DNA from: an uncultured Bacteroidales bacterium
GTDB taxonomy: Bacteria; Bacteroidota; Bacteroidia; Bacteroidales; UBA932
Reading direction: 5' to 3'
Length of the DNA stretch: 64,000 nt
Assembly: GCA_900320545.1 (NCBI GenBank)
Contig: ONSU01000002.1
Span: forward strand, 42,143-106,142
In this document: positions 37,709 to 62,301 of the stretch, one piece after another
How positions within the stretch are numbered: position 1 is the stretch's first letter
Layout of the letters: every line of letters begins with the position of its first letter
Translations under genes and position numbers: made by a program
Notes under the pieces: generated by a model
What the model saw: only the letters and a program-made list of their open reading frames with translations
The model's database searches: none
Told to the model about the DNA's origin: nothing

Positions 37709-37726
37709 TGTGTGTCCGGACACACA
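37709..37726. promoter_or_regulatory. Perfect 18-bp palindrome TGTGTGTCCGGACACACA (operator candidate, site 1)
   Basis: Lies 19 nt upstream of the LamG gene ATG. Overlaps the CAAAGATA (reverse complement TATCTTTG) -7 box at 37725-37732. Confidence 0.6.
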
Positions 37727-37821
37727 AAGATAGCAAAAAAATCATAATTCCACAAACGGCCCGAACGCAGGGATCCCGGTGAGCTTTTTATGAGTTTTTC
37801 ATTGTGAAGTTTTCAATTCGA

Positions 37822-39258
37822 CTAACTGAACAGATCCTCTGCTACGACCTCTGAATCCACGACATCCTTGTTCACACCATCGGCCACGCCGAAAGTTGTC
37901 ACAAAGGTGATGTCCAGCCCGTCAGAGGTCTTTTCCACTTGCTTGAACAGCTGCTTCCTCTCACGGACATCCTCCGCGTAGGATTTCTTGATGACGAAAG
38001 GACCGACGGAGAACTTCATCTCACAAAGGTTGATGATATGGTCTCCTCGGGCAATCAGCAGGTCAATCTGCGCTTTCCTCCCCATTTCATCCTTGCCTGG
38101 CACATGGCGCCACGAGGATGCCGACGTGGAAATGCCAGAGATACCCAGGCTCTTGCGTATCTGGGGGAGATGGGTAAGACAGATCAGTTCAAAAGCATAT
38201 CCCTGCCAGGATTCCACCGAATGAGAATTGTAATTGTGTGTCCACCACTCCTCATCCTTGCTGTCAATGGCATTCACAAACTTGTAATAGAACAACGTGT
38301 AGAAATCCACGAGCCTGTACAGGGTGCCCCTGGACTTATTCCCGAACTGCTGGAAGGAAATAATGAAATCGCAACGTTCCAGATTCTTCAGGACGGTTGT
38401 CAGGCGGTCTCCGTCAAGGCTGGTTCCTTTTTGGATTTCTGTGAAGGTCAATCCGTCGTGGTTGCGGTTCAGCAGTGAAACGACCTCCAGGTACTTGTCA
38501 ACCTTATTGAAAACAGCCGTGAACAGTTCATCGAATTCCGTCTTCAACTCTGCATTCCGGCGGAAGAACAGCCGGTCAACATTGGCCAGCAACGTCTGTT
38601 TCGGGTCAAGCAGGCTCAGATAGAAAGGCACGCCACCCATAATCTGATACAACTGAAGAATCTGGTAACGGCTCCAATGGAAGCCCCTGCTCTGCAGATA
38701 CTCCTCCGTCTCCTTCAAATTGAAAGGCCGGATATAAATGTTATTCGTGATTCTTCCGTGCAGGCCTCCGATATTCTCCACGAACTTGTTCACCATCCAC
38801 GATGAAGCCGAACCGCTTGCAATCAGCATGATGTCGCTGCGACGTGAACCCCAACTGTTCCAGAAGGATTCAAACGCCTCCACAAACTCAGACTGCGGCG
38901 TATCAATCCAAGGCATCTCGTCAATGAAGATAACCTTGCGTTTATCTTCCGGAAGACTCTCAATATATTCTTCCAAAGCATCAAAGGCTTCCTCCCATGA
39001 AGAAAGCTTAGGTTGGAGCTTGAGACCGGCCGCTTTCTTCAGCGCCTTGGCGAATCCGCGCAACTGCTTTGCCTTGGTAAGTTTAAACCCGCCGACAAAG
39101 GAGAAATCGTATTTCTTCTCGAAGAACGTGTCCACAAGGAACGTCTTGCCCACACGTCTGCGGCCATATACAATCACCAACTCCGAACGGTCACTCTCGT
39201 AACACCGTTTCAGTTCAGCCATCTCCGCCTCCCGGGCGATTATCTTGGGTGCCTTCAT
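37822..39258 (-). CDS. AAA+ ATPase (Arch_ATPase-type) fused to a DUF234-type PD-(D/E)XK-like domain
   Basis: Walker A GRRRVGKT and Walker B VIFIDEMP. C-terminal AQIDLLI ... INLCEMKF (D...ExK pattern). GC is lower than in the flanks. Confidence 0.75.
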   Translation of the reverse strand: MKAPKIIAREAEMAELKRCYESDRSELVIVYGRRRVGKTFLVDTFFEKKYDFSFVGGFKLTKAKQLRGFAKALKKAAGLKLQPKLSSWEEAFDALEEYIESLPEDKRKVIFIDEMPWIDTPQSEFVEAFESFWNSWGSRRSDIMLIASGSASSWMVNKFVENIGGLHGRITNNIYIRPFNLKETEEYLQSRGFHWSRYQILQLYQIMGGVPFYLSLLDPKQTLLANVDRLFFRRNAELKTEFDELFTAVFNKVDKYLEVVSLLNRNHDGLTFTEIQKGTSLDGDRLTTVLKNLERCDFIISFQQFGNKSRGTLYRLVDFYTLFYYKFVNAIDSKDEEWWTHNYNSHSVESWQGYAFELICLTHLPQIRKSLGISGISTSASSWRHVPGKDEMGRKAQIDLLIARGDHIINLCEMKFSVGPFVIKKSYAEDVRERKQLFKQVEKTSDGLDITFVTTFGVADGVNKDVVDSEVVAEDLFS

Positions 39259-39416
39259 GTCAAATGCATTTTATTTCAGTGCGAAGATAGCAATTATTCT
39301 TTTGCCGACAATAAAAAGTGCAAGCTTTTTGCTCTTTATCTTCAAAAATTTCGGAGATAAAGTACATTTACCCCATACTTTTTCTGGTTTAGCCCGAGTC
39401 AATCGTTATTTTCGGG

Positions 39417-40322
39417 TTAGTAAGTATCAAGCGAAGAACGCCCCCGCCAATCAGCGGGGATTTCAAGGCCGAGAAGCTGCGCCAGCACAGACGTGACATC
39501 ATACTGCATCATGAAGGAAGAAATCTCTCCCTTTCTCTCTCCGTCCCGGATAAAAAGAGGTGTCCGGAAATCGCGGAGGTCGTAGGTGCCGTGCTTCTTG
39601 TCCGGCTTCCCGCCGTGGTCGGAGGTGAGGACGACCGCCGTACCCTTCGAATCCGGAGAAGCCGCCAGGGCGTCCAGCAGAAGGCCGACGGCCTCGTCGG
39701 CACGTACAAGGGAGGCATAGTATTCGGGAGAGCCCCAGCCATACTTGTGCCCCGTCTCATCGACATCCACGATATAGAAGAAGAACAGATCCGGCATCCC
39801 CTTTTCGATGACCGGCACGCCGTACTCCTTCGTATAATCGATGGATGAAAGGCTGTCCGGACGGTATTTCACAAATTGATGTTCCGTTACGGCCAGGGTG
39901 TCGATCAACGGGGCAATGCCGTTCCAGTCATAAATACAGACGGAATGGGCCGCGGGCCGCTGCTCCTGCAGCAGGGTAAAAACAGTGGGAGGCATTCCGT
40001 GGGCCGATACCGCATAGGGCGTAAACGCCGAAGAATCGGAATTCCATTTGCGATAGCCGTGCATTTCGGTGGGAACGCCCATGAGAATGGATGCCCAGTT
40101 GATGGCCGATGAAGTCTGATAAACGGCCCGCTTCTCCATCGTCCAGAGGCCCTCGTCACGAAGGCGTACAAAGTTGGGGAGCTGGTCCGGAATGCTGTCC
40201 AGCGCCGTTTCCAGGCACCAGGACGCGAGACCGTCAATTCCGATAAAAAGCACCTTGCCGCGGGGTGCGGAGCAGGCCGCAAGTAAGGCGACACATAGGA
40301 TCAGCAGAAACTTCTTCATCAT
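39417..40322 (-). CDS. Lipoprotein of the nucleotide pyrophosphatase/phosphodiesterase (alkaline phosphatase superfamily)
   Basis: Lipobox LLAAC. Metal and nucleophile region FIGIDGLASW and a distal TSDHGG. Start set at MMKKFLL. Confidence 0.75.
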   Translation of the reverse strand: MMKKFLLILCVALLAACSAPRGKVLFIGIDGLASWCLETALDSIPDQLPNFVRLRDEGLWTMEKRAVYQTSSAINWASILMGVPTEMHGYRKWNSDSSAFTPYAVSAHGMPPTVFTLLQEQRPAAHSVCIYDWNGIAPLIDTLAVTEHQFVKYRPDSLSSIDYTKEYGVPVIEKGMPDLFFFYIVDVDETGHKYGWGSPEYYASLVRADEAVGLLLDALAASPDSKGTAVVLTSDHGGKPDKKHGTYDLRDFRTPLFIRDGERKGEISSFMMQYDVTSVLAQLLGLEIPADWRGRSSLDTY

Positions 40323-40372
40323 ACGTAAAAAATCCATAATGTTCAATCCCGACAAATATACAAAAAAATAAT

Positions 40373-40388
40373 TGTGTGTCCGCACACA
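40373..40388. promoter_or_regulatory. Palindromic operator candidate, site 2 (TGTGTGTCCGCACACA)
   Basis: Lies between divergent -7 boxes CAAATATA (40353-40360, minus-strand gene) and TATCTTTG (40429-40436, plus-strand gene). Confidence 0.6.
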
Positions 40389-40441
40389 TATTTCAAAAAA
40401 AATATTCCCCGTTATCGAAGGAAAAAGTTATCTTTGCATTT

Positions 40442-42595
40442 ATGACCAGATTTCTGAAATGGCTGTCCCTCAGCCTCGCTGTCCTGCTCCCTTTGACGAC
40501 GGAGGGTGCCGTCTCGCACGATATCCCGAGTCTCGCCCAATGGGGGCCCTACTCGAAGGAATATTTCGGCATCTCGCACATCGCCGATCTCCGCTCGGGA
40601 ATTCAGGTGGAATTCTGCCTCGTTCCCGGCGCTTACAGGCGCAACGTAAAGGTTCCCTGCGCCCTCTGGGAATCGGATGTCCACCCCTGGAGCGTATCCG
40701 CCGACATGCGGCATATCACCTACCGCCAGGAAATCGAATGGAAAGACCGGGTCTTTGTCGATGCCACCTATCATATCATCGATGACCGTCAGGTCCTGCT
40801 GGAGGCACGGTGCGTCAACCGGACGGACCTCCTGCAGAACATCAGCCTGCAGCTGGCCGTGCGGAAATCCGGCGGCTCTCCGGAGCAATGGACGCCGGAG
40901 ATAAAGCAGGGAGAGGGCTGGTTTACGGTGCGATACCCGGAAGTGGACGCCACCTACGGCGTCGTCTGGGACTACCCGATGAGCGAAGTCCGGCAATGGC
41001 GATGCGCTAAGTTGGAGCAGTTGATGCCCCGGAAGGTGCACGACCACGTGTTTAAAGATATGAAGGGAGACCGTAAGGGGCATTACACGGCCAATTTCCT
41101 GCGGCCGGTGGTGCTCCGCCCGCAGAGCGACACGACGGTGCGGATGGTGATTTTCTGCGGGGAGGAGATTCCCGGGACAAGCCCGGGAATGACGGAAAGG
41201 AAAGGGAATGACGGGAGCGGCAAGGACGGAAAAGCCGAACGGCCTTCTCCCCTCGGCGTGCAGCTGCTGCAGGCGACGCTGCTGACCAACATCGTGTACC
41301 CCATCGACGCGTTCGGGGAGCCGATCCGGCATTTCTGCCCGGGAAAGAACTGGAACAGTCTCTACACCTGGGACTGCGGATTCATCGGCTGGGCGATGGC
41401 GGAGATCGATCCGGGCCGGGGATATGAAATCATCCGGCAATACACGACGGCACCCGAGGAAGAGGCCCCCTTCGTGCATCACGGCACGCCGCTCGCCACG
41501 CAGATCCTCGCCATCGGCGACGTCTGGGAGCGCGGCGGCTGCGACATGGAGCAACTCCGCGAAATCTATCCCCGCCTCAAGCGCTTCTACGACTACATGA
41601 CCGGTCCGCGCTTCCGTAAGCCTTCCGGCCTGCTCGAAACCTGGAACATATTCTACAACAGCGGCGGCTGGGACGACTATCCGCCCCAGTGGGCCCTCCG
41701 TCCGCAAAAAGAGCTCCGCAGCCGGACCACGCCGATGGTCTCCACCTCCTATTACATCCGCTGCGCCAAGATTCTCCGCCTCTTCGCAACCCATCTCGAG
41801 GCCTCGGCAAAAGGCAAGGGGAAGAAACCTTTCACGACCGATATCAAACAGTTCGACGCCGACATCGCGGCCATGTCGAAAGGCATTCTCGACAATGCCT
41901 GGGATGCCGGGACCGGCTATTTCGGCTACGTCGAGCACAACCCGGCCGGAAGCCCCGAAAGGATTTACAAGACGGAAGGCGGCGTCAATTTCAACATGGG
42001 CCTGGACGGCGTGACCCCGCTTGTCGCCGGCATCGCCGATGATGCGCAGCGCGAGGCGTTGCTCAGACACATCTTTACCAAAGGGGAACTCTGGAGCGAC
42101 TGCGGCATCACCGCGGTGGATCAGCGCGCCCCGTATTACCGGAAGGACGGCTACTGGAACGGCACCGTCTGGATGCCGCACCAGATGATCCTGTGGAAGA
42201 CGATGCTCGACCTCGGCCGCCCCGACCTCGCCAGGCAGATCGCCGACACGGCACTTGAGAACTGGGAGAGGGAATGCGAGGATTCCTACAACTGCTACGA
42301 GCACTTCATGATCGAAACGGGAAGGGGCGGCGGCTGGAACAATTTCTCCGGGCTTTCCTCCCCCATCCTCAACTGGCACTTCGCCTACCATGAGCCCGGC
42401 ACCGTATCCACCGGCTTCGGCACGCTCGTCACCAACGCGACCTGGAGCGGGGACAAGTCCTCCGTGGAACTCACCCTCCGCTTCGACCGGGACCTCATCG
42501 GGAAAGAAGTCGCAATCGTCGCCTGCCTCGCCGGCGGGCCTGTCTGCCGCCCGGTAAAAGCGACACAGAAGCCGCTGACGCTTAAAATTCAATGA
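40442..42595 (+). CDS. Secreted (alpha/alpha)6-barrel glycoside hydrolase, GH63/MGH1-like
   Basis: Signal peptide. YTWDCGFIGWA, GGWDDYPPQ and DGYWNGTVWMPHQ motifs, typical of the GH63/trehalase-like clan. Confidence 0.65.
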   Translation: MTRFLKWLSLSLAVLLPLTTEGAVSHDIPSLAQWGPYSKEYFGISHIADLRSGIQVEFCLVPGAYRRNVKVPCALWESDVHPWSVSADMRHITYRQEIEWKDRVFVDATYHIIDDRQVLLEARCVNRTDLLQNISLQLAVRKSGGSPEQWTPEIKQGEGWFTVRYPEVDATYGVVWDYPMSEVRQWRCAKLEQLMPRKVHDHVFKDMKGDRKGHYTANFLRPVVLRPQSDTTVRMVIFCGEEIPGTSPGMTERKGNDGSGKDGKAERPSPLGVQLLQATLLTNIVYPIDAFGEPIRHFCPGKNWNSLYTWDCGFIGWAMAEIDPGRGYEIIRQYTTAPEEEAPFVHHGTPLATQILAIGDVWERGGCDMEQLREIYPRLKRFYDYMTGPRFRKPSGLLETWNIFYNSGGWDDYPPQWALRPQKELRSRTTPMVSTSYYIRCAKILRLFATHLEASAKGKGKKPFTTDIKQFDADIAAMSKGILDNAWDAGTGYFGYVEHNPAGSPERIYKTEGGVNFNMGLDGVTPLVAGIADDAQREALLRHIFTKGELWSDCGITAVDQRAPYYRKDGYWNGTVWMPHQMILWKTMLDLGRPDLARQIADTALENWERECEDSYNCYEHFMIETGRGGGWNNFSGLSSPILNWHFAYHEPGTVSTGFGTLVTNATWSGDKSSVELTLRFDRDLIGKEVAIVACLAGGPVCRPVKATQKPLTLKIQ

Positions 42596-42596
42596 G

Positions 42597-43892
42597 ATGA
42601 ACAGAAGAGATTTCCTGAGGGCATCACTCCTGAGCGGAGCCGCCCTGTGGCTGACGGACTGGAAAGAGGCCTTTGCGGCGGGCTGCAAGGACACGCTCGC
42701 CGGCAAGAAGTGGCCGGGATGGAAGGAAGGGCAGTTCCAGATCCACTTCATCTATACCGGAGTGGCGGAATCGATGTTCCTGATTTTCCCCGACGGGACG
42801 ACCATGCTACTGGACTGCGGCGACTTCGACGCACTGGCCCGGGGGCCGAAGGCCGTTCCGTTGCTTCCGAGCGCGGAACGCCATTCCGGGGAATGGATCG
42901 CCCGCTATGTCACGCGGGTCAATCCCGCCGTCACCGACGTGGACTATATGCTCCTGAGCCATTATCACAACGACCACGCCGGCAGTGACAAGTTCTTCGC
43001 AGAGAAAATCATCCGAGACGGCGAGGAATACGCCCTCAGCGGCTTCTCCCAGGCGGCGGAAATCTTAAACTTCCGCAAGGCCGTCGACCGCTGCTGGCCC
43101 GATTACGACGACCCGATCCCGGACACCGCGACGGGCGGAGACCCCGATACGGCAATGCACATGAAGCGCTTCTACACTTATATGCAGAAGCACCGCGGCC
43201 TCCAGATCGAGAAATTCCGCCTCGGCGCCACCAACCAGATCGTCCCGCTCCACCACGCCGGGAAATACCCTTCCTTCTCGGTACGGAACATCTGCGCCAA
43301 CGGGCGCATCGCCTATCCGGACGGACGGATCAAAGACCTCTTCGAGGCGAAGAAAACGCAGAACCCGAAGAAACTCAACGAGAACGCGATGTCGCTCGGA
43401 ATGGTCTTCTCGTACGGTCCTTTCCGCTTCTATACGGCGGGCGATTTCTCCGCCAAATTCAGAGACCCCGACGGCACGGTCCGCTTTATCGAAGACGACA
43501 TCGCCGAGGTCTGCGGCCGCGCCAATGTCGCCAAGATCAACCACCACGGGCACAATTCGATGAGCCGCAAACTCGTCGCCGCCCTCCGTTCCCAGGTTTA
43601 TGTCAGCTGCGTCTGGGACCAGCTCCACAACCTTCCGCCCTGCATGGAACTCCTCTCCGACCGCTCCATCTATCCGGACGACCGGATCATCTGCCCCACG
43701 ATCATGCCGGCCGAGCGCCGGGCCAAAGACGGCGACGCCGCCTGGATGAAAGACATCGCGCCCGACTCTTTCGAGGGCTGCCACGTGGTCGTGAACGTCG
43801 AAAAGGGCGGCCGCCGCTACTCCGTATCCTTCCTCAGCGCCGCCGACGAGTCGATGACCGTCCGCAGCGTGCTGCATTTCAAGACAGTATGA
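42597..43892 (+). CDS. Tat-signal MBL-fold metallo-hydrolase (ComEC-type beta-lactamase domain-like)
   Basis: MNRRDFLRASLLSGAA twin-arginine signal. LLDCGD, SHYHNDHAG and INHHGH motifs. Confidence 0.7.
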   Translation: MNRRDFLRASLLSGAALWLTDWKEAFAAGCKDTLAGKKWPGWKEGQFQIHFIYTGVAESMFLIFPDGTTMLLDCGDFDALARGPKAVPLLPSAERHSGEWIARYVTRVNPAVTDVDYMLLSHYHNDHAGSDKFFAEKIIRDGEEYALSGFSQAAEILNFRKAVDRCWPDYDDPIPDTATGGDPDTAMHMKRFYTYMQKHRGLQIEKFRLGATNQIVPLHHAGKYPSFSVRNICANGRIAYPDGRIKDLFEAKKTQNPKKLNENAMSLGMVFSYGPFRFYTAGDFSAKFRDPDGTVRFIEDDIAEVCGRANVAKINHHGHNSMSRKLVAALRSQVYVSCVWDQLHNLPPCMELLSDRSIYPDDRIICPTIMPAERRAKDGDAAWMKDIAPDSFEGCHVVVNVEKGGRRYSVSFLSAADESMTVRSVLHFKTV

Positions 43893-45757
43893 AAAAGATC
43901 GTTCATCTCTTTCTGGCGCTCCTTATCGGTGTAGCCGTTTATGCACGAAGCGCCCCGGTCATTTCCGACTGGGACAGTGCAAAAGACATCCCTCATCCGC
44001 GGCTTCTGATGAACGACACGGAAAAGAAAATGTTGCGCAGGCAGATCCGGCGCAATAAAGATATCGCCCTGCTGCACAATTCCATCATCTCGCATGCGGA
44101 TGAATGCGTGAACGACACGGTGCAGCTTGCCTACAGGCTCGACGCCTCCGGGGTGCGGCTGCTGGAACAGTCCCGGTACGCGCTCGAAAGGATCTTCTTC
44201 TGCGCCTATGCCTGGAGGATGACAGGAAAGGACAATTATCTTTCCCGGGTCCGGGAGGACATTCTCACCGTATGTGCATTCCCGGACTGGCATACACAGC
44301 ATTTTCTCGACACCGGGGAAATGGCCCTTGCCGTAGCCATCGGACTGGACTGGTGCTTTGACGGCCTCCCGGCCGAAGTCAGGAATGAAGCCGCAGCCGC
44401 CCTCGACCGCTTTGCACTCAGCCGGTACAAGGGGCAATGGTTCACCACCCAGGAGACAAACTGGAACCAGGTGTGCTACTGCGGCCTGGTTGCGGCGGCT
44501 GTCGCCGCATACGAGTGGTATCCGTCGGTCAGCCGGGAACTGCTCGAAACGGCCGTGGCCGACAACCGGAAAGCGATGAAAATGTACGGCCCCGACGGCA
44601 TCTATCCCGAAGGGTACATCTACTGGTCATACGGGACCGGATTCGAGGTAATGCTGCTCGAAATTCTGAGAGAGGTTTATCAGTCCGATGCCGGACTCTC
44701 GGATGCGCCGGGCTTCCTGGAAACCGGCACATTCATGAAATATATGACCGGCACTTCCGGCAAGAGTTTCAATTACGCCGACAGCGACGAGGAAGTGGTT
44801 CCCCTTTATGCGATGTGGTGGTTTGCGGCCCGGCAATCACGACCGGACCTGCTCCCGAACGAGATCGCCCTGCTTCGCGACGGGAAGTACTTCGTAGACC
44901 GCGACTGGATGCGATTCGCGCCCTTTGCGGCTTGTATGGCTTCTAAATTCACCATGCCTCGCGGGAAAACCGGGGCGGACGAGACAAAGTTATTCTCGGG
45001 GAAAGGCCCCGTTCCCGTCGTGCTGATCCGTACGGGATGGAAAGGCTCGCCGGAGGAGCGATATCTCGCATTCAAGGGAGGAAGCGCATCCGACAACCAC
45101 GGACATATGGATGCAGGATCCTTTGTATATGACGCCTTCGGCCTGAGATGGGCCTGCGACCTGGGAACCCAGCCGTATGCGGAGGTAGAAAAAGCCTTCA
45201 GCAAATACAAGAAAAGTTTCTGGAGCATGAAGCAGAAGTCCTGGCGCTGGAAAGTGTTCCGCCTGGGGAATCCGGCACACAACACCCTCACGGTAGGCTC
45301 CATGCAGCATTGCGTGGGCGGAAGGGCGGCGATTTTCAATGTCGTTGACACCGACGCGGCCAGAGGCGGAGTCATCGACCTGTCCGAAGTCTTTCAGGGA
45401 CAGCTTTCCTCCGCCAGCCGGAAAATTCTGCTCCTCGACAATGACTCACTCCTCGTTGCGGACGCCATCCGGGCCCTTCCGGAGGCACCTGCCGATATTC
45501 AGTGGCGGATGGTCACGGACGCTTCTCCCCAAATAACGGAAGAAGGCATTCTTCTGGAGCAGGGCGGCTATCGCATGCTCCTCTCCGCTTCCTCCGACGA
45601 CCCCTCCGTCACGCCGGAATACAAAATCTGGCCTGCCGCCGGCACTGAGGAATGGGATGTCCCCAACCCCGGCAAAAGCATCGTGGGATACTCCGTCACC
45701 ATTCCCGCCGGGCGGGAGTGCACCATCAGCGTATCTTTGCGCACACAAAACCCATAA
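43889..45757 (+). CDS. Heparinase II/III-like (polysaccharide lyase-like) protein
   Basis: Signal peptide. DNHGHMDAGSF and AHNT motifs. ATGA overlap with the upstream gene. Confidence 0.7.
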   Translation: MKKIVHLFLALLIGVAVYARSAPVISDWDSAKDIPHPRLLMNDTEKKMLRRQIRRNKDIALLHNSIISHADECVNDTVQLAYRLDASGVRLLEQSRYALERIFFCAYAWRMTGKDNYLSRVREDILTVCAFPDWHTQHFLDTGEMALAVAIGLDWCFDGLPAEVRNEAAAALDRFALSRYKGQWFTTQETNWNQVCYCGLVAAAVAAYEWYPSVSRELLETAVADNRKAMKMYGPDGIYPEGYIYWSYGTGFEVMLLEILREVYQSDAGLSDAPGFLETGTFMKYMTGTSGKSFNYADSDEEVVPLYAMWWFAARQSRPDLLPNEIALLRDGKYFVDRDWMRFAPFAACMASKFTMPRGKTGADETKLFSGKGPVPVVLIRTGWKGSPEERYLAFKGGSASDNHGHMDAGSFVYDAFGLRWACDLGTQPYAEVEKAFSKYKKSFWSMKQKSWRWKVFRLGNPAHNTLTVGSMQHCVGGRAAIFNVVDTDAARGGVIDLSEVFQGQLSSASRKILLLDNDSLLVADAIRALPEAPADIQWRMVTDASPQITEEGILLEQGGYRMLLSASSDDPSVTPEYKIWPAAGTEEWDVPNPGKSIVGYSVTIPAGRECTISVSLRTQNP

Positions 45758-45761
45758 CAAC

Positions 45762-47990: not shown

Positions 47991-47993
47991 ACG

Positions 47994-48959
47994 TCAGTCC
48001 TTGTAGGCGAATTCCGTAAGGACGGGATAATGGTCTGAAATATACAGAATGCCGTAATCCCGTTTGTCAACCGAATACGTAAGCGCCTTGAGCGGACCGC
48101 AGAAGAAAATGTGGTCGATCAGGGTGCCGTTATTCTTGCCGTAATCGTTACAGGTATTGACAGTGCGGAAACTGGACTTGGCCGCATCCTCCCGGGCATA
48201 CCCGAGCGGGAATTTAATCAGCTGCTGCAGTTCATCCGTCGAGGACGCGCAGTTGAAGTCGCCCGTCAGGATTACAGGATCCTTACAGGAAGATCCGATG
48301 GCCCCGCCGATGATGGCCGGCATCTGACTCAGATGAAGATTGCTCTCCATCATCCGCAGGGAAGCCGCATTCGGCGCATTCTTGTTGTTCTGGTAATGGG
48401 TGTTGAACAGCCATACCGTACGGCCGAGTTTCTCCTCGTCGGTCAGTTTGATCCAGGAGGTGCACAGGGGATGCGTCGTATGCCAGGAGCCGTAATCATT
48501 GACTTTGTTCTTCGCAGCCACCTGACCAGGCGTATCGCTGTGCCAGAATGTACCCTTCGAAGACAGGGTAAAACGGGACTTCTTGTAGAAAATCGTATTG
48601 GATGTCTCGCTGCCTGTCACCTGCAGGATATCTTTCCCGCTCTCACGGCCGATTCCGTACAAGGCATACTCGTCCTTTACTTTGGAAAGAATATATTCCG
48701 CCTGGACCTTCTCCACCTCCTGCATCCCGATGATGTCGGGCTTGCGGGTCAGGATGAATTTGCAAAGCGCGTCCTTTCGGTTGTCCCAGATATAATCCCC
48801 GTCGGTCGGCTCGGGATAACGGATGTTGAAAGTGCAGACGAGAAGATCCGCACTTTCAACAGGTTTCCCTCCCCCATTCTCCGGATCCTTGCGGCAACCG
48901 GGAAGAACGGCCAGGAGCGCCGCAAGCAAAATCGTGAAAATCCCTTTATTTGACGACAT
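47994..48959 (-). CDS. Endonuclease/exonuclease/phosphatase (EEP) family lipoprotein
   Basis: Lipobox LPGC. EEP motifs TFNIRY, IIGMQE, GDFN and SDHYPV. Confidence 0.8.
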   Translation of the reverse strand: MSSNKGIFTILLAALLAVLPGCRKDPENGGGKPVESADLLVCTFNIRYPEPTDGDYIWDNRKDALCKFILTRKPDIIGMQEVEKVQAEYILSKVKDEYALYGIGRESGKDILQVTGSETSNTIFYKKSRFTLSSKGTFWHSDTPGQVAAKNKVNDYGSWHTTHPLCTSWIKLTDEEKLGRTVWLFNTHYQNNKNAPNAASLRMMESNLHLSQMPAIIGGAIGSSCKDPVILTGDFNCASSTDELQQLIKFPLGYAREDAAKSSFRTVNTCNDYGKNNGTLIDHIFFCGPLKALTYSVDKRDYGILYISDHYPVLTEFAYKD

Positions 48960-50934: not shown

Positions 50935-50954
50935 ATCCTTGCAAATTTAACACT

Positions 50955-52772: not shown

Positions 52773-52784
52773 TGCGAAACGGTA

Positions 52785-55700: not shown

Positions 55701-56060
55701 AAGGTTCACCTTCTTCTGGGTACCGTAACCCACGACCACCGTCTCCTCCAGCATCAGGTTGTCGGCTTCGAGAACGATGTCCGCCTGATTCTGCGATGCG
55801 GGAACAGTTATGGATGTGGAGGTATAGCCCAGGCAGGAGATATCCAGCCGGACATCCCCTTCACCCACTTGCAACGACCACGATCCGTCGATGTCGCTGA
55901 CCGTTCCTTTCGAGGTTCCGCTTACAATAACCCCCGCACCGGGGACACCTTCCCCGGAAGCATCCGTTACCCTGCCGGAAACCGTCCTCTGGGCAAACGC
56001 GGCGAACGCCGTGACAAGCAGGAGAATCGCTGCCGAGAGAATTTTTCTTGCTCCGTTCAT
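52785..56060 (-). CDS. susC: SusC/RagA family TonB-dependent outer-membrane transporter
   Basis: Carboxypeptidase-regulatory-like N-domain (GRVTDASGEGVPGAGVIV), TonB-box and plug (VVVGYGTQKK), 1091 aa, terminal F. No N-terminal anti-sigma signalling extension. Confidence 0.92.
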   Translation of the reverse strand: MNGARKILSAAILLLVTAFAAFAQRTVSGRVTDASGEGVPGAGVIVSGTSKGTVSDIDGSWSLQVGEGDVRLDISCLGYTSTSITVPASQNQADIVLEADNLMLEETVVVGYGTQKKVNLTGAITAVKGDDIQNRTSGDVTSMLQGSVPGLNITSSTGIMNESPDINIRGYTSINGAGPMVLVDGAEGDLSRVNPQDVESISVIKDGSAAAIYGARAAFGVILVTTKAGTDEDGKATVRYSGRFGWQSPTTSTDFETRGYWSVHTLNTFWEARYPGEKYLKYNDNDMNELLARVNDVTEHPDRPWVVEETVGGVRQWKYYGNTDWYHTLFSDRNPVFQQNLSVSGGGKNFKYYISGTWDRRQGILKIHPDILDKYQLRARFEGRIAKWATISNNTSYYDQKYSYLAQGTSNLDRAISMLTAHALPCFPLQNPDGSWVYYSQYFVNSYAVGNGMHVKFSENTDRHIERKYDFANTTELNITPVRQLRLTGNFTFRRRRNHTTARQTELQYRQYPDEPMQVRSTGVGTNQLDEKARTYRYMSANVFATYEDTFKDAHHLTAVIGGNYETQYTQYLEAIGYYLVSDTLNDLSLAGTDITGATRQYIDGEQTEYALLGFFGRVNYDYKGRYLFEISGRYDGSSRFAKGHRWGFFPSASAGWRISEEPFFAPAKRYVSNLKLRASFGSLGNQVVSNYAYIRKVSVDDASYMFGGETLAKTASISAPNAGDLTWETVRQYNVGLDAGFFHDRLQFTGEAYIRNTLGMLVSGAALPAVYGAAAPKQNTANLRTRGFEFSLSWKDQVKLGGHPFGYGVSANISNYDSFITKYDNNPNKLISDYYVGRHLGELWGFEANDLFATDIEAQDYAAAVDLSYITAGMGSGWKAGDLKYEDLDGDGAIGVGANTVDDPGDRRIVGNSLPRLSYGFTVSMDYFGFDVSAFFQGTGDHQWYPPRFNFPFWGPYSNPMQSFIRRDFMNDVWDYNNPDAYFPRARGYIAEISGGYLNRTNTRYLQNCRYLRLKNLTVGYTVPQKWTRKAGIEKIRVYFSGENLACWSPLFKHSSFLDPEAIMHDDSEATGRSFYPWQKSFMFGLDIQF

Positions 56061-56072
56061 ATCGTGGTCGCT

Positions 56073-56186
56073 TTAGAAATAAATCGTACCCTGGCCGTCG
56101 GCCGGAATGTCCTCCAGCTGACCATCATCCGCAGGAGTACATGCCATCAATGTCAAGAGAACAAATATAGCCAGGATTTTTTTCAT
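56073..56186 (-). CDS. Micro-lipoprotein of 37 aa (22-aa mature peptide CTPADDGQLEDIPADGQGTIYF), absent from the ORF track
   Basis: Hand translation gives MKKILAIFVLLTLMAC..., a canonical signal peptide with lipobox LMAC. The ATG lies 1 nt after the stop of the upstream gene. The stop lies 12 nt before the susC ATG. Confidence 0.5.
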   Translation of the reverse strand: MKKILAIFVLLTLMACTPADDGQLEDIPADGQGTIYF

Positions 56187-56187
56187 T

Positions 56188-57918
56188 TTACTGATAATCA
56201 AAAATCAATGTCGCCGTCACAGGCCAGTGGTCGGAGATGTAGGTCACGCCGGCATAGGGCCGGAAGTCGGTTCCGAAGCTGCCGGGGACAAGCCCGTGCT
56301 TGGCGTCTTCATAGCAGTAGCGGTAGATGATGTGGTCGAGATTGGAGCCGCCGCCGGAGACGGTACCGCTGCCGTATATGGAGGAGAATCCGGCACAACC
56401 TTCCGTGAAATTGTTGTAGCTGACAGGATAAGCCGTCTTGCTTGTCTTCCCGTCCACATTGCGGGCAAAGTAATAATCACCCCATCCCGTGTAACCCTTC
56501 TCCTCGCCCATCATATCCGATGCGGATTCGTTGAAATCACCGGTCACGATGACCGGAAGATGCCCGGTATTGATGGCTTCTATCTGGTTGTACAGGATTT
56601 CCGCCTCCTCCTTACGGGTGGCGTATGCTTCAGCTGTATAATGTGCTTCGAAGTGGGTGTTGAATACATAGAATACTTCTCCGGTAGCCTTGATGCGGAA
56701 CTTGATCCAGGCGCAGTTGCGCCCGCCGCCGGAACCGACACTGGCGGGATTGGAAGACAGCCAGAACGTTCCCTTGTCCAGGACATCGAACCTTGCGGTC
56801 TTGTAGAAGATGGCGTTGGAGGAGTCGGTGTTGTAGTCTTTCTTGTTCCAGAGGTAGCCGGTGGATCCGCTGGACTCCTTCCCGTATTCCACGCCAAGGC
56901 CATAGGCGGCGTAGCCTTCCGTATTGTCGAGGATGTTTACCCGCTGACGGTATTCGCATTCCTGCGTCCCGATGATGTCGGGCTCATTATCATTGAAGAA
57001 AGCATAGATTCCCGACCTGCGTACGCTCCAATAGTGGCTGCTGCTCCAGTCGCTGTTGTCATCGTTGCTCTGGCAGGCGACATTGAAGGACCACACCTGG
57101 AGCGAGGCGCGGGCGGCGGGCATCGTAGTCTCCATCGTAGTCTGGGCCGACCGGGTAATGGTGAACGGCTCCGTAAGACTCTTGGAACTGATGCTTCCGT
57201 CCGGGAGGACAGCACTCACGGTAAGGCTCGAATAAGATCCGGCAGGAATGACCACGATAAACTCCTTGGCAGAAGAGGTACTCAACTGCTGGGCGGAACT
57301 GCAATTGACCGCAACGGTCTTGTAGCTGTCCGCCGAACCGGTAATTGTCAGGGTGTTACCGCCACGGGAAACGGTCCCGGGACCCGTGACCGCCTTGTCG
57401 AAAGTGAGCTCGAGGCGCGAAACCTTGATGCTTCCCTTCAGGCGCAGCTTCAGGACCCCGCAGAGATTCTTCATCGTAAAATTTCCGAAAGAACTGCTGG
57501 TCCCGGAGAGCATCGGATTGCTGCCGGGAGCAAATGTCCCCGCGGTATAATCCACCTCGGAAGGGAGCGTGAAAGTAAATGTACTGCCGCCATTGTATGT
57601 CGCCGTAGAAGGATATACAACGAAATAGTTCTCACTGCCGGTATATTGGGGCCTGACGCCGCTGAAGGTGCCGCTGCCGGTTCCTGCTCCGCCAGTCAGA
57701 GTAAATGTATTTCCGGCTCCGTTACCCTGCGCAAAAACTTTGATTTCGTCCCCTGAAGACCAGAGCACACTGGTCCCGGAAAGACTGGTCTTAACCGCTC
57801 CCTCTTGACCGACGGTAATTTCGGTCAAGAGAGCCTCCGGCTCCGCCTGTTCGAATTTACTGCACGCCGCGAGCACGGCAAGGCCTGCTATGATAATTAG
57901 TAGAATCCTTCTGCACAT
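56188..57918 (-). CDS. Lipoprotein with N-terminal beta-sandwich domain shared with the giant lipoproteins, plus a C-terminal EEP phosphoesterase domain
   Basis: Lipobox LAAC. N-terminal pattern LWSSGDEIKVF ... NLCGVLKLRL. C-terminal EEP motifs SFNVA, IIGTQECE, VTGDFN and SDHWPV. Confidence 0.75.
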   Translation of the reverse strand: MCRRILLIIIAGLAVLAACSKFEQAEPEALLTEITVGQEGAVKTSLSGTSVLWSSGDEIKVFAQGNGAGNTFTLTGGAGTGSGTFSGVRPQYTGSENYFVVYPSTATYNGGSTFTFTLPSEVDYTAGTFAPGSNPMLSGTSSSFGNFTMKNLCGVLKLRLKGSIKVSRLELTFDKAVTGPGTVSRGGNTLTITGSADSYKTVAVNCSSAQQLSTSSAKEFIVVIPAGSYSSLTVSAVLPDGSISSKSLTEPFTITRSAQTTMETTMPAARASLQVWSFNVACQSNDDNSDWSSSHYWSVRRSGIYAFFNDNEPDIIGTQECEYRQRVNILDNTEGYAAYGLGVEYGKESSGSTGYLWNKKDYNTDSSNAIFYKTARFDVLDKGTFWLSSNPASVGSGGGRNCAWIKFRIKATGEVFYVFNTHFEAHYTAEAYATRKEEAEILYNQIEAINTGHLPVIVTGDFNESASDMMGEEKGYTGWGDYYFARNVDGKTSKTAYPVSYNNFTEGCAGFSSIYGSGTVSGGGSNLDHIIYRYCYEDAKHGLVPGSFGTDFRPYAGVTYISDHWPVTATLIFDYQ

Positions 57919-57929
57919 AGTATTCTATG

Positions 57930-60900
57930 TTATTCCATTCCTACGGAAATATTCTCAGGTGTTCCCTCATCACTAATGGCCGTCACGGTAACGGTGATGT
58001 CGGAAAGGTGAATAACCGGTTTCCGGCTGTCGCTGGCTGAACCATCATCGTAGGTTGGCTTGGAGAAGTTTGTTTTCGCAGGTCCGAAGATAATCCGGTC
58101 TCCGGCTTTTATCTTCAAGGTCCTGGAGACTGTCTCCCAGGTCTCACCATCATTTTTATTGAAGGTGATGCGCCGGACGTGGTCGCCTTCCGCTCCGTCA
58201 TCCTGCCAGCTGAAATCCGCCTTGTTGCCGGAAACAGCGGCTCCAGCCTGAGTGATGGCGCCAAGCGCCCATTCGCCCTTGTTTGCACCATAAGAAGGAG
58301 ATGCGGTAATGGTAACTTCGACCGTCGCCACCTTTCCGGCGGCAATCGGGAATTCAGGTGTCAGGAGCCAGCCTAAACAACTGTCATATTTACTGCCATC
58401 GGCAAGTCTGGTTCCTATCTGGACATAACCTGGACGAACCCATATTGCTCCATAATTCGGCTTTGCGGCATTTATACAACTGGTGTTGCCGACGGCGTCC
58501 CATGCCCAGTTCGCAAGCCGGCTTCCGGGCAAGGCTCCCGTCTGACGGAAGAGCGACCACCATCTGCATAGCTGTACTGACTCATAAGGATCACTGTTGT
58601 CAAGAGTTTGGTTGCTGAAGGAAGATCCGGAGTCGGGATCGATACCCACCGCATCCGAATTGTAATCCGAATTCCAGCAGAGTTCGCTGAAGTCCTCGGC
58701 AAAAGCGAGTCCTGTTTCGGAGATACTCGAAGGCATCGTCTTGACAGTGAATGGCTTGGTCCTGGCAATGACAGCTGTGGATGTCTGGGAATCTCCGTCG
58801 CTTACCTTTATATAATATGTCGTATCCGGACTGAGTCCCGCAAAGACAAATCGCGGGGAGTGAGAAGTACTCCAATAGGATGCGTTGGCAGCGAAACTGA
58901 AGGAACGGACCGGCGTCCCACTGCATTCCGCATTGTCATAGAGGAAAGCCGTATAGGATTTTGTAATATCATCCTCAACGGAAGTACCTTCCGTCCATTC
59001 GACCGTTATGGTGGAAGAACTTGTTTCCCTGACTGTCACCCGGACAGGATCGTTCTCAATGGAAGTAACCTCGACCTTGATGTCGCTGATGAACACACGC
59101 CCCTTGGAACTTGATGATCCCTCTGCGGCGCCGAAGGCGATGCGGTCTCCAGGAAGGATGGTCAAGCCCTCAGCGGTGACGGTCGTCCACTCCGTCCCGA
59201 GCGCGACGGTCTGATACTTGTCCGGGGTGTTTTCTTCAGGCCAGCTGAAATTCGCCGCATAGCCGCTCACGTTAGCTTCTATGGCGTTGAGAACGGCGAT
59301 GCCCCAGCTGTCCTCCTGACTGGAGTTATACTTCGCTGCGGTGACGGTCACATTGACTATGGCCTTCTTTCCGCCCGGCACCGTAAACTGCGGTGTCAGT
59401 ATCCAGCCCTTGCCGCTGGCGGTACCCATCTTGAGGTAACCGCAGTGGTAATAGACATTGCTGTCATAAGCCCACCCTGCAAGGCGGCTGGAGGCAAGCG
59501 GAGCCGTGGTGGACATCTTGACCTCTCCGGAATTGCTGTTGCCGGCGACATAATTCTTGACATCCGTGGAGGAGAAAGAGGAGGTCGTGTTGGGAACGTA
59601 CCCGGCCGCACCGGCGAGCATATCCGACTGCCAGCGGAGTTCCCCGAAGTCCTCGGCAAGAGCGACGCCCGTCGAAGTAATGGACGAAGGCATCTGCACG
59701 ACGGTAAAGGCTTCCGTAGTGGCGGAAACGATGTTGGAGACCACGCCGTCCGTCGTATCCGTCACCTTCAGATAATAGGTCGTAGCCGGGGTAAGTCCGC
59801 CGAATACGTATTTCGGCTGTGCACTCCTCCAGCAAGCGTCCCCCGCGGGGATATCGAAGGAAGCGACCGGCACCGTGCAGGCGTCATCGCTATAAAGAGC
59901 CGCCGTGAAAGCGTGGGAAGGATCGCCGCTCCAGGTAAACGGCAGGGTCGAAGAGGTCGCCCCTTCGGCGGGATAGGCAAAGAGCGACGAAGCCGACAGC
60001 GCCTTGACATCCACCGAGATATCATCGAAGAGTACACGGGCCTTGCTGTTCGAACCTCCTTTTGTGCGTCCGAATGCTATCCTGTTGCCCCTCTGTATCC
60101 GCAGACCCCGCACGGTCACGGTCTCCCAGGGAGATGTGTTCTCCTTGGTCTTTGTAGTGGAGACGACCCTGTAGAGAGAGACATCAGTTATATCCGGCCA
60201 GGTGAAGTCAGACTGACGGCCACCCTTGTCTCCGTCCTCGCTGATCACGCAGACCATAAAGTCATCGGACTGGTCCGCATTATATTTGGTGAAGCTTACG
60301 GTAACATCCGCATACGCAGATTTGCCTTCCTCTATCGGGAATGTGGGCGTAAGGGCAAAACCGTAAGAGCTGCTCGTTCCCAGCTTCAGATATCCGGGGT
60401 GAATGTAAACCTTGCCCTCGGACAGCCAGCCGGCAAGGCGGCTGTTGGCGATAGCCGTGGAGAAATTACCGGTGCCGCGGAAGTCCTTCTCGTCCGGATT
60501 GATCGTGGCTCCGGACAGGGAATGATTGGAGAAACTGCTCTGGTTGGAAGGAAGATATCCCACGCCGTTCTTCACATACTCCGTTCCCCAGGCGAACTCG
60601 CCGAAGTCCTCGGCATAGACCACCCCGGCGGCGGTAATGTCCGAAGTGGGCATCTGGACTACCGTAAACGCCTTGGTGCTCTCCTGTACCGGGTCGCTCA
60701 ACGCGCCGGCCGTAGGGTCTTCCACCTTGAACCAATAGTCTGTCCCGGGAGCAAGACCGCCGATGACAAAACGGAGGGCTTCGCCGACTTTCCACTCGGC
60801 GGACGCAGGAAGGTCGTAAGATTCATATTCGGACGTGCACCCGCTGTCGGTATAGACGTGAACTTTCCAAGGCTTCTTCGTATCGCTGGCGGGATTGGAG

Positions 60901-61778
60901 CCGGTCCAGCGGATCGTGATGGCGGAAGAATTGACGGCCCAGTGGCCGGTAATCGCGACCGCTGACGGCACATACGCCGGAGCCGTGATCGGATACAGCG
61001 TTCCCGCCGCGGCGTTGAAGGCCGACGTGCGGGAGAAGGCCATGGAAGTACCGTCAGACGCACTGATAACAAAGCGGAGGCCGCCGGCATAATTCTGCGC
61101 CGGGATGGCCAGGGTAACCGGGGTTCCGAACGGAAGGCCGCCCGAGGGGGCCTCAATCTCGACATAATTGTTTTCGCCGCCCGAGAGGGAAGAGAAGTCG
61201 GTCGTAAAGACGCCGCTCATCTTCTCCGTGCCCAGGGCCTCCAGTTTGATGGAAGTGATATTGAGCGTACCCTCGGCCGGGGCGGTCGGGGTAATCTTGA
61301 AGAGCGACATCATCGGGTTGAAACTCAGTGAGGGGGAGTTGCCGCTTCCGAGCATGATGTAAGCGGCGGGGTCGTGCTGCCCGGCCACATAAGCCTGTTG
61401 CGAGGGAATCGTAACCGTCGCCGCTCCGGAGGCATATCCGGAAATCGCCGAAGCCGGAGAAGCTGAATAATACGGAACCGTCAACTCGCCCGTAACGGAG
61501 AACTGGGCATAATTGGTACCGACATAGCCGTCGCCATCTTCCAGGGCTACGCTTGAGATGCCGTTGACACTGATGACGTCGCCCGCCTGCCAGAGAGTCG
61601 GATAGCCGTCCTCACCCTTCTCTCCAAGGCAAACCTTGGTCTCGGGGAGGGAGGCCTTGAAGACGACAGTCTTGATTTCTCCGGAAGTATTCTCCGGGAG
61701 ATCCTGCTCTTTGGCGCAGGAAAATGCAAGGACAAGAATGCCTGCAAGCAAAAGAATCTTTTTCATTGTCGTCTTCAT
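57930..61778 (-). CDS. Giant surface lipoprotein: N-terminal beta-sandwich domain plus 3 x (Fn3 + unknown AEDFGE-W module)
   Basis: Lipobox AFSC followed by acidic residues. Three collinear internal repeats of about 310-375 aa at about 59997-60968, 59061-59996 and 57933-59060. Start placed at 61778 (MKTTMKKILLL), 2 nt after the small ORF stop. Confidence 0.8.
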   Translation of the reverse strand: MKTTMKKILLLAGILVLAFSCAKEQDLPENTSGEIKTVVFKASLPETKVCLGEKGEDGYPTLWQAGDVISVNGISSVALEDGDGYVGTNYAQFSVTGELTVPYYSASPASAISGYASGAATVTIPSQQAYVAGQHDPAAYIMLGSGNSPSLSFNPMMSLFKITPTAPAEGTLNITSIKLEALGTEKMSGVFTTDFSSLSGGENNYVEIEAPSGGLPFGTPVTLAIPAQNYAGGLRFVISASDGTSMAFSRTSAFNAAAGTLYPITAPAYVPSAVAITGHWAVNSSAITIRWTGSNPASDTKKPWKVHVYTDSGCTSEYESYDLPASAEWKVGEALRFVIGGLAPGTDYWFKVEDPTAGALSDPVQESTKAFTVVQMPTSDITAAGVVYAEDFGEFAWGTEYVKNGVGYLPSNQSSFSNHSLSGATINPDEKDFRGTGNFSTAIANSRLAGWLSEGKVYIHPGYLKLGTSSSYGFALTPTFPIEEGKSAYADVTVSFTKYNADQSDDFMVCVISEDGDKGGRQSDFTWPDITDVSLYRVVSTTKTKENTSPWETVTVRGLRIQRGNRIAFGRTKGGSNSKARVLFDDISVDVKALSASSLFAYPAEGATSSTLPFTWSGDPSHAFTAALYSDDACTVPVASFDIPAGDACWRSAQPKYVFGGLTPATTYYLKVTDTTDGVVSNIVSATTEAFTVVQMPSSITSTGVALAEDFGELRWQSDMLAGAAGYVPNTTSSFSSTDVKNYVAGNSNSGEVKMSTTAPLASSRLAGWAYDSNVYYHCGYLKMGTASGKGWILTPQFTVPGGKKAIVNVTVTAAKYNSSQEDSWGIAVLNAIEANVSGYAANFSWPEENTPDKYQTVALGTEWTTVTAEGLTILPGDRIAFGAAEGSSSSKGRVFISDIKVEVTSIENDPVRVTVRETSSSTITVEWTEGTSVEDDITKSYTAFLYDNAECSGTPVRSFSFAANASYWSTSHSPRFVFAGLSPDTTYYIKVSDGDSQTSTAVIARTKPFTVKTMPSSISETGLAFAEDFSELCWNSDYNSDAVGIDPDSGSSFSNQTLDNSDPYESVQLCRWWSLFRQTGALPGSRLANWAWDAVGNTSCINAAKPNYGAIWVRPGYVQIGTRLADGSKYDSCLGWLLTPEFPIAAGKVATVEVTITASPSYGANKGEWALGAITQAGAAVSGNKADFSWQDDGAEGDHVRRITFNKNDGETWETVSRTLKIKAGDRIIFGPAKTNFSKPTYDDGSASDSRKPVIHLSDITVTVTAISDEGTPENISVGME
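59375..59582. repeat. Left arm of a 208-bp inverted repeat, inside repeat unit 2 of the giant lipoprotein gene
   Basis: Hand alignment of the reverse complement against 63490-63697 gives 195/208 identical with no gaps. The single 21-nt flank I compared (59583-59603 vs 63469-63489) is 13/21 identical. Confidence 0.8.
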
Positions 61779-61780
61779 TT

Positions 61781-61936
61781 TTAGTTGAACCATTCGTCTT
61801 CGCCGGGGTCTCCTTCCCCGACATTGCCCAGCTGCCCGCTTTCCAGGAAGTTCTCCTCGGGATCGAGAAAGATCAGCTCTGCTTCGGGGCTGCTGTAGGA
61901 AGCGAAAGCCTTCATTTCAAGTGTTTTTTGTATCAT
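61781..61936 (-). CDS. Conserved small ORF A (51 aa), immediately upstream of the giant lipoprotein gene
   Basis: MIQKTLEMKAFASYSSPEAELIFLDPEENFLESGQLGNVGEGDPGEDEWFN. Same length as ORF B, with 14/51 identities and no gaps. No signal peptide. Confidence 0.4.
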   Translation of the reverse strand: MIQKTLEMKAFASYSSPEAELIFLDPEENFLESGQLGNVGEGDPGEDEWFN

Positions 61937-61959
61937 AATCCTATAACATTTTCTAAATA

Positions 61960-61975
61960 GTGTGTGCGGACACAC
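61960..61975. promoter_or_regulatory. Palindromic operator candidate, site 3 (GTGTGTGCGGACACAC)
   Basis: Contains the reverse complement of TGTGTCCGCACACA at 61961-61974. Lies between the minus-strand -7 box and the small ORF A start. Confidence 0.6.
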
Positions 61976-61999
61976 TCTAACAAATCCAACATTATGATG

Positions 62000-62007
62000 C
62001 AAATATA
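62000..62007 (-). promoter_or_regulatory. -7 promoter box (TATATTTG on the minus strand) for the small ORF A / giant lipoprotein unit
   Basis: CAAATATA on the + strand matches the reverse complement of TAnnTTTG. Confidence 0.5.
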
Positions 62008-62028
62008 TATATTTTTTTTGTTTTTAAC

Positions 62029-62042
62029 TGTGTGCGGACACA
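62029..62042. promoter_or_regulatory. Palindromic operator candidate, site 4 (TGTGTGCGGACACA), central site between divergent promoters
   Basis: Exact reverse complement of the 14-mer at 40375-40388. Lies 21 bp from the minus-strand -7 box and 18 bp from the plus-strand -7 box. Confidence 0.6.
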
Positions 62043-62060
62043 TTTTCCGGAATTAATTTT

Positions 62061-62068
62061 TATATTTG
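62061..62068 (+). promoter_or_regulatory. -7 promoter box TATATTTG for the small ORF B / paralogous lipoprotein unit
   Basis: Matches the TAnnTTTG consensus. Confidence 0.5.
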
Positions 62069-62098
62069 CATCCGGATGGAGACATTTTCGACCAGGTC

Positions 62099-62112
62099 TG
62101 TGTCCGCGCACA
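62099..62112. promoter_or_regulatory. Palindromic operator candidate, site 5 (TGTGTCCGCGCACA)
   Basis: One mismatch from the 14-mer consensus. Lies in the predicted 5' UTR, 30 nt upstream of the small ORF B ATG. Confidence 0.55.
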
Positions 62113-62141
62113 TATATTAAAGGTATAAATACCCAGACGAT

Positions 62142-62297: not shown

Positions 62298-62301
62298 AAT
62301 T

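Follow-up and report, generated by a model that had tools for sequence, protein, structure and literature searches.

The 64-kb stretch of DNA analyzed here, hereafter the window, comes from contig ONSU01000002.1 of an uncultured rumen Bacteroidales bacterium (positions 42,143 to 106,142) and has a G+C content of ∼58%. Housekeeping genes fill its first half (RsgA, a polyprenyl synthase, an aminoacyl-tRNA synthetase, UvrA, and aromatic amino-acid biosynthesis genes), followed from ∼35.7 kb onward by a block that resembles a polysaccharide utilization locus (PUL). Within this block lie copies of a short palindrome, TGTGTSCGSACACA, which is the subject of this analysis. An earlier note on the same DNA had reported five such sites, and our search of the window bore out all five.

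Site 1 (37709-37726, TGTGTGTCCGGACACACA) is a perfect 18-bp palindrome with the core TGTGTCCGGACACA at 37711-37724, and it stands at the promoter predicted for a minus-strand gene that encodes a lipoprotein with a Laminin_G_3 domain (LamG; 35747-37690). Site 2 (40375-40388, TGTGTCCGCACACA) occupies the divergent region between a minus-strand gene of the type I phosphodiesterase/nucleotide pyrophosphatase family (39417-40322) and a plus-strand operon (40442-47990) for a GH63-like hydrolase, a metallo-beta-lactamase (MBL) fold protein, a heparinase II/III-like protein, and a glucuronyl-esterase-like protein. The remaining sites share one divergent region. Sites 3 and 4 (61961-61974 and 62029-62042) both read TGTGTGCGGACACA, the former in the predicted 5′ untranslated region (UTR) of a minus-strand PUL operon (47994-61913) and the latter central between two back-to-back predicted promoters. 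Site 5 (62099-62112, TGTGTCCGCGCACA), which has one mismatch, falls in the predicted 5′ UTR of a plus-strand operon (62142-64000). The minus-strand operon comprises a 44-aa open reading frame (ORF), a 1287-aa repeat lipoprotein, an EEP phosphatase, SusC, SusD, a BACON protein, and a further EEP protein, and the plus-strand operon comprises a 51-aa ORF and a giant lipoprotein that runs off the window. The two giant lipoproteins are paralogues, divergently transcribed, and each is preceded by one of the 44-51 aa ORFs. We regard these genes and operons as the putative targets of the sites.

Allowing up to two mismatches, we found nine strand-matches in the window against 0.25 expected, a number that none of 100 dinucleotide shuffles reached. 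At three mismatches to TGTGTSCGSACACA, the additional matches in the window were at chance level and none fell in an intergenic gap. The earlier note had confined the sites to promoters of the accessory (PUL) block and had put a TAnnTTTG box, the pattern of the predicted Bacteroidetes -7 element, at or near every one; both statements held. All five sites are intergenic and lie in three promoter regions of the 35.7-64 kb block, where three of the six gaps that reach 60 bp or more contain sites, as opposed to none of the eight such gaps in the housekeeping half; these gap counts come from an approximate gene map, with ∼6% of the window intergenic. A box was found 0-30 nt from each site, and no copy of the motif was found in coding DNA of the window. 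Over the 25 nt that flank them, the five copies show no relationship to one another (22-44% identity), so the motif is short and isolated and not a piece of a longer repeat. A further near-match with two mismatches, TCTTTGCGCACACA at 45734-45747, falls where the heparinase II/III-like gene meets the glucuronyl-esterase-like gene. Its right half-site is intact, and it may have arisen by chance or may serve as a weak internal operator.

The -7 boxes are sequence-pattern predictions, and in each of the three intergenic regions the TAnnTTTG boxes found are just those that the flanking genes would require. Transcription start sites (TSS) were put ∼6 nt downstream of each box. The LamG gene has the predicted box TATCTTTG at 37725-37732 (minus strand), which site 1 abuts, with its center at about +1.5 of the predicted TSS. 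Around site 2, the phosphodiesterase gene has TATATTTG at 40353-40360 (minus strand) and the GH63-like operon has TATCTTTG at 40429-40436 (plus strand), placing the center of the site at about -34.5 with respect to the former and -60.5 with respect to the latter. Since this sole canonical GH63 box ends 5 nt before the start codon (40442), the mRNA would be near-leaderless, or a variant box, TAATTGTG, which overlaps site 2 on the plus strand, would be used. At the divergent lipoprotein promoters, TATATTTG occurs at 62000-62007 (minus strand) for the PUL operon and at 62061-62068 (plus strand) for the operon of the small ORF and paralogous lipoprotein. Site 4 is centered at about -41.5 and -38.5 of these two predicted promoters, and sites 3 and 5 at about +26.5 and +31.5 in the predicted leaders of the minus- and plus-strand operons, respectively. 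The centers of these three sites are 68 and 70 bp apart, and across all sites the centers are 27-122 bp from the nearest downstream start codons.

The conserved core is a 14-bp even palindrome in which the half-sites TGTGTSC and GSACACA meet at the center. When 19 collected sites were symmetrised, the half-site counts out of 38 were T36 G38 T38 G38 T37 (G27/C9) C36, and the central CG pair was present in all five window sites and in 17 of the 19. The G, T, and G of the arm are each invariant (38/38). Next to the central CG, either G or C occurs, with no compensating change in the other half (CCGC). Invariant arms together with uncompensated changes next to the center are what one would expect of recognition by a protein, not of base pairing. 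This bears on an alternative explanation in which the palindromes act in RNA, as small 5′-UTR hairpins for mRNA stability, processing, or translation. While sites 1, 3, and 5 are predicted to be transcribed and hairpins of 5-7 bp can be drawn (-3.7 to -8.0 kcal/mol), sites 2 and 4 lie upstream of predicted starts, the hairpins are weak, and two of them are no better than shuffles (z of -1.4 and -0.07). Moreover, the arm sequence shows no covariation over the 19 sites, symmetry is broken freely beside the center, and the 14-mer also stands upstream of LacI genes in unrelated Bacteroidota, as described below. We consider a role in RNA highly improbable.

The core of the ideal symmetric lac operator (Osym), TGTGAGCGCTCACA, shows one difference per half-site from the consensus TGTGTGCGCACACA. 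More broadly, the palindrome resembles operators of the LacI/GalR family (LacI, PurR, GalR, CcpA) in its even symmetry, central CG, and upstream placement: a CG pair occupies the center of 1173 of 1303 LacI-family motifs, and in >75% of cases a LacI-family site precedes the start codon by 30-140 bp (PMC4052901). Sites in that survey are typically 16-22 bp long, whereas the conserved core here, at 14 bp, is shorter. A Pho-box, an idea that arose from the many phosphatase and phosphodiesterase genes, was rejected since the two halves of the motif, which meet at a CG, are inverted and not directly repeated.

The earlier note had seen no cognate factor in the window, and we likewise found no regulator gene within its 64 kb. 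A metagenome search with the second lipoprotein yielded 28 loci, among which L066 is colinear with positions 52299-63998 of the window at 95.1% nucleotide identity and extends ∼10 kb further. Directly after the lipoprotein gene, L066 encodes a 355-aa protein with a LacI-type helix-turn-helix (HTH; PF00356) and a Peripla_BP_4 domain (PF13407), at a position ∼1.1-2.2 kb past the right edge of the window. The gene is the last of a uxuB-uxuA-lacI operon, in which uxuB, a short-chain dehydrogenase/reductase (SDR), scores 327 bits against the NCBIfam cut-off of 281 for D-mannonate oxidoreductase and uxuA encodes mannonate dehydratase; the regulator reaches no NCBIfam equivalog cut-off. The divergent promoter region of this operon contains TGTGTGCGGACACA and a variant, TGTGTAAGGACACA, the latter abutting the -7 box, and an operon for an SDR, an Nramp-like transporter, a PfkB kinase, and a 6-phosphogluconate-dehydrogenase (6PGD)-like protein lies on its opposite side. 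A second locus, L067 (88.8% nucleotide identity), also carries this regulator (97% aa identity), and a copy of the motif precedes the regulator start by 53 bp; both operators at the divergent lipoprotein promoter of L067 read TGTGTGCGCACACA. The window, L066, and L067 are colinear with no inversion. The LacI gene of these two relatives gives the likely identity of the factor for the window sites. A 99.7% identical contig of 12.5 kb, L001, comes from cow rumen project PRJEB21624 and is too similar for footprinting.

The regulator is also LacI/GalR-like in its architecture, with an HTH and a periplasmic-binding-protein-like effector domain, and in its putative sugar-catabolic targets and apparent autoregulation. 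Its recognition helix reads S-x-G-T-V-D-R-V-L-H, as compared to S-Y-Q-T-V-S-R-V-V-N in LacI. The closest solved relative of the effector domain (residues 64-354, E 4.8e-28) is PDB 3gbv, a putative LacI-family regulator; this structural-genomics entry covers the effector domain only, with no DNA complex, ligand, or function assigned.

Conservation in related intergenic regions, which the earlier note had proposed as a check, was seen well beyond these close relatives. Homologues of the regulator number in the hundreds, and we fetched the contexts of six (L094, L096, L099, L101, L224, and L226). The palindrome was present in intergenic regions flanking the regulator gene in six of seven orthologue contexts (58-98% identity), with the half-sites TGTGTGC and GCACACA as the consensus. 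In L094, the regulator gene (73% identity) is directly upstream of a small ORF, a 964-aa lipoprotein, EEP, SusC, and SusD, and TGTGTGCGCACACA is found in two gaps, one between the regulator and the small ORF-lipoprotein pair and the other between the lipoprotein and EEP. In L099, from a host of 48% GC, three sites flank a regulator of 58% identity, which has a divergent SDR-Nramp-PfkB-6PGD operon on one side and SusC on the other. L224 (75% identity) has one site, TGTGTTCGCACACA, in the 80-bp divergent region of a lacI-uxuB-uxuA-heparinase II/III operon, and L226 (65% identity) has two sites with GH63-like, GH88, and SusC/D genes among the neighbors. The linkage of the regulator to uxu genes and to the divergent SDR operon recurs in L099, L224, and L226. 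Overall, the genes beside the orthologues belong to the families of the window (SusC/D, EEP, fn3 lipoproteins, GH63-like, and heparinase II/III-like) and also include sugar-acid genes. The motif follows the gene position of the orthologue group in six contexts despite differing gene order, and it is kept at equivalent promoters in hosts of 48-60% GC.

The exact core GTGTSCGSACAC had no copy in 25 lipoprotein-homologue loci without the regulator, which are distant homologues (29-41% identity), and 340,647 bp without the regulator (L068-L093) held just one copy, which lies in L068 where the promoter of a homologous PUL is situated. This copy has the same 18-nt spacing to the -7 box as site 4 of the window, a gap to the TATATTTG box that L067 keeps as well.

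Two observations on these loci stand apart. The operon for the SDR, Nramp-like transporter, PfkB kinase, and 6PGD-like protein is always divergent from the LacI regulator (L066 16046-20525; L099 5237-9836; L224 5444-9920; L226 5404-9882), and the presence of an Nramp-family member among sugar-acid genes suggests that this transporter was recruited to carry a substrate other than a metal. L101, whose locus includes SusC/D, GFO_IDH_MocA, and Nramp-like genes, encodes a regulator homologue of 42% identity and has only an odd palindrome, GTGTGT-T-ACACAC, upstream of it (9786-9800). With the same arms and another center, this may represent an operator that has diverged within a paralogous regulon.

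A genome search with the 14-mer of the window gave exact matches in at least 120 stretches. The source genome was not among the 120 listed, of which ∼34 were from Bacteroidota. Matches fell in DNA without a 100-codon open frame in 15 of the 34 Bacteroidota stretches, in 10 of 86 from other phyla, and in 3 of 64 from viruses; the 64 viral-contig matches were all single, 61 of them inside long stop-free stretches, and were set aside as being at chance level. Among the 120 matches listed, at least seven Bacteroidota stretches encode a LacI homologue with 25-29% identity to the regulator. The 14-mer precedes the LacI homologue gene by 27-190 bp in each of the seven, and the recognition helix GTVDRV(L/I)H, the same as in the regulator, was found in all six that could be read. 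Genes next to these LacI homologues include kdgK-kdgA (Bacteroides neonati), uxuB-uxuA-uxaC (Dysgonomonas), SusC (two loci), and GH3, and more of the Bacteroidota matches listed lie upstream of SusC and sugar-catabolic genes. This placement suggests that the 14-mer is an operator word common to a Bacteroidota LacI subfamily.

The same data raise the possibility that the sites serve another protein, either a LacI-family paralogue that is encoded elsewhere in the genome and shares the recognition helix or a global carbohydrate regulator of the CRP/FNR type. Since the identical 14-mer and the GTVDRV(L/I)H helix occur at LacI homologues this distant, a paralogue in the same genome could replace the adjacent regulator at the sites or bind them alongside it. 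As for CRP, the TGTG/CACA arms resemble its half-sites. The CRP consensus, TGTGA-N6-TCACA, has a 16-bp core within a 22-bp site, and its TGTG and CACA blocks are 8 bp apart. In every copy here, however, these blocks are 6 bp apart, a spacing that does not suit CRP. In Bacteroides thetaiotaomicron, four such LacI-family paralogues are predicted, and uxuRBA is also among the targets of a CRP-like global regulator (PMC3878776). On the other side, the central CG and the 14-bp even symmetry are LacI traits (PMC4052901), and the motif tracks orthologues of the adjacent regulator in the six contexts of differing gene order. On balance, we think it unlikely that a different protein is the one served by these sites.

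We also weighed whether the palindrome could be a generic short repeat, such as a remnant of a repetitive extragenic palindrome (REP) or miniature inverted-repeat transposable element (MITE), or the target of a site-specific recombinase at an invertible promoter, with no transcription factor involved. Sites 4 and 5 are inverted around a predicted promoter, and the 120 genome matches listed do not extend to the source genome and its copy density. Against this, the five copies share no similarity beyond the 14-mer, coding DNA of the window is free of them, genes for a recombinase or transposase are absent from the block, sites 4 and 5 enclose no more than 56 bp, and the colinearity of L066 and L067 with the window as well as the retention of the motif at equivalent promoters across hosts of differing GC content were described above. 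The earlier note had itself named a generic repeat scattered through coding sequence as an outcome that would count against its reading, and the motif was not repeat-like in the window, in ∼0.5 Mb of related loci, or in the 120 genome matches listed. Such an origin seems to us very improbable.

Taken together, the even palindrome, its central CG, its position 27-122 bp upstream of start codons, and the linked, apparently autoregulated LacI-family gene match the traits of LacI operators. We put the probability at ∼0.82 that the five palindromes are operators of a LacI-family factor whose gene lies, in close relatives, just past the right edge of the window. The proposal of the earlier note that a dimeric DNA-binding protein uses these sites is supported.

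As operators of this factor, the sites suggest the following mechanism. The regulator would be co-transcribed with uxuB and uxuA. By analogy to LacI and PurR structures, one dimer would bind each 14-bp site, with its recognition helices on the TGTGT arms and its hinge at the central CG. Judging from the predicted starts, sites 1, 2, and 4 would cover the -33 element or the TSS, and sites 3 and 5 would lie ∼26-31 nt downstream of it. The unliganded protein would repress the promoters predicted beside these sites, and hence the glycan-degrading operons of the block, most likely by occlusion of the -33 element or TSS plus a roadblock in the leaders. A cytoplasmic sugar-acid intermediate from the PUL substrate would then bind the C-terminal domain and release the repressor, which would induce the regulator gene along with the PUL and the genes of sugar-acid catabolism. 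The positions of the sites, at the -33 element or TSS or at about +26 to +31, fit repression that is relieved by a sugar-acid inducer. It is also conceivable, though rather unlikely, that a higher-order complex forms on the three operators of the divergent promoter, or that the central site, in a class II-like activator position, makes the protein a dual activator and repressor of the PUL. We view with the same reserve the separate idea that, with the 14-bp word shared, the specificity of paralogues is set outside the arms or their regulons cross-talk.

Several points weigh against assigning the five sites to this LacI-family repressor. The regulator gene is known from relatives alone, as the window stops short of its position, and the 120 matches listed do not give the size of the regulon in the source organism. 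With respect to the annotated GH63 -7 box, site 2 is placed at about -60, no classical position for repression. L096, with a regulator of 65% identity, has no site within 21 kb, the promoter of its adjacent hexuronate operon being outside the DNA examined. Lastly, the identical 14-mer also precedes genes for LacI homologues that share no more than 25-29% identity with the regulator.

Among known systems, the nearest are the Bacteroides LacI-family regulators of glucuronate, galacturonate, and 2-keto-3-deoxygluconate (KDG) catabolism, UxuR (BT1434), KdgR (BT0487), and UxaR (BT0824), which had already been predicted by comparative genomics (Ravcheev et al. 2013, PMC3878776; 2014, PMC4052901). 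The system described here shares with them a Bacteroidota-specific LacI branch and hexuronate genes, with uxuB and uxuA in the operon of the regulator as in uxuRBA. The identical 14-mer is found upstream of LacI genes beside kdgK-kdgA in Bacteroides neonati and in a lacI-uxuB-uxuA-uxaC arrangement in Dysgonomonas, and these regulators share the recognition helix but are only ∼28% identical to the one described here, so that any orthology is tentative. The published B. thetaiotaomicron UxuR and KdgR motifs exist as figure logos, and the supplementary tables give genes and no site sequences. Whereas the B. thetaiotaomicron UxuR regulon consists only of uxuR, uxuB, and uxuA (PMC3878776, Additional file 3), the sites here span a PUL block of ∼28 kb. 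The system also differs from LacI/GalR systems in its Bacteroidetes -33/-7 promoters, in its apparent targeting of a complete SusC/D PUL, and in having up to three operators at one divergent promoter. Other PULs, such as variants of the ribose utilization system (rus), also have a LacI-type regulator gene next to a SusC/D locus in place of an HTCS, SusR, or ECF sigma/anti-sigma pair, and among the alternative regulators of rus-like PULs the LacI type is noted as the most frequent; no operator was defined there, and substrate and gene content differ from those here (bioRxiv 10.1101/574913).

Further features of the window deserve mention. The small ORFs before the giant lipoproteins (61781-61913, minus strand, and 62142-62297, plus strand) are 33% identical over 40 aa (E 5e-6), have an acidic, Trp-containing C-terminus in common, and match nothing in Pfam or NCBIfam. 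Counterparts lie at 11235-11399 in L094/L095, and a 54-aa gene is called in L095 at the equivalent position. These 44-54 aa ORFs may encode a leader peptide or a small protein that is conserved in PULs of this type. The 1287-aa lipoprotein (57930-61793, minus strand) consists of an N-terminal domain and three tandem modules of ∼300 aa, which are fn3/Pur_ac_phosph_N-like. Its second module is 73% identical to a module of the divergent paralogue (62302-64000, plus strand), suggesting that the two genes have recently undergone duplication or gene conversion. Three AAA-ATPase genes of the ATPase_2 or AAA_14+DUF4143 type are present (1239-2459, plus strand; 34320-35672 and 37822-39258, minus strand), two of them interspersed in the PUL block, and their own intergenic gaps are without an operator; an ATPase_2 gene is also directly upstream of the LacI orthologue in L096 (8750-9877). 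These ATPases (ATPase_2 at 37822-39258 and AAA_14/DUF4143 at 34320-35672) were considered as the factor and dropped once the LacI gene was found, and they show no motif-linked conservation. Two radical-SAM genes in the housekeeping half (18555-19571 and 30986-32053, both minus strand), one with SPASM, adjoin short unannotated ORFs and are unrelated to the motif.

This finding leaves the general understanding of gene regulation unchanged and concerns an ordinary kind of bacterial gene switch. LacI-family operator sets are already known, and the modest addition here is that an entire PUL is covered and that one divergent promoter has three operators. For the organism, the analysis provides a concrete, testable regulator and operator set for an uncharacterized rumen Bacteroidales PUL that, in the window, is without the usual regulators of the hybrid two-component system (HTCS), SusR, or extracytoplasmic function (ECF) types. 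By tying this PUL to sugar-acid (uronate/aldonate) catabolism, it also offers a hint on the substrate. For the family, the association of the consensus TGTGTGCGCACACA with the GTVDRV(L/I)H subfamily of LacI regulators is usable to annotate regulons in many Bacteroidota genomes.

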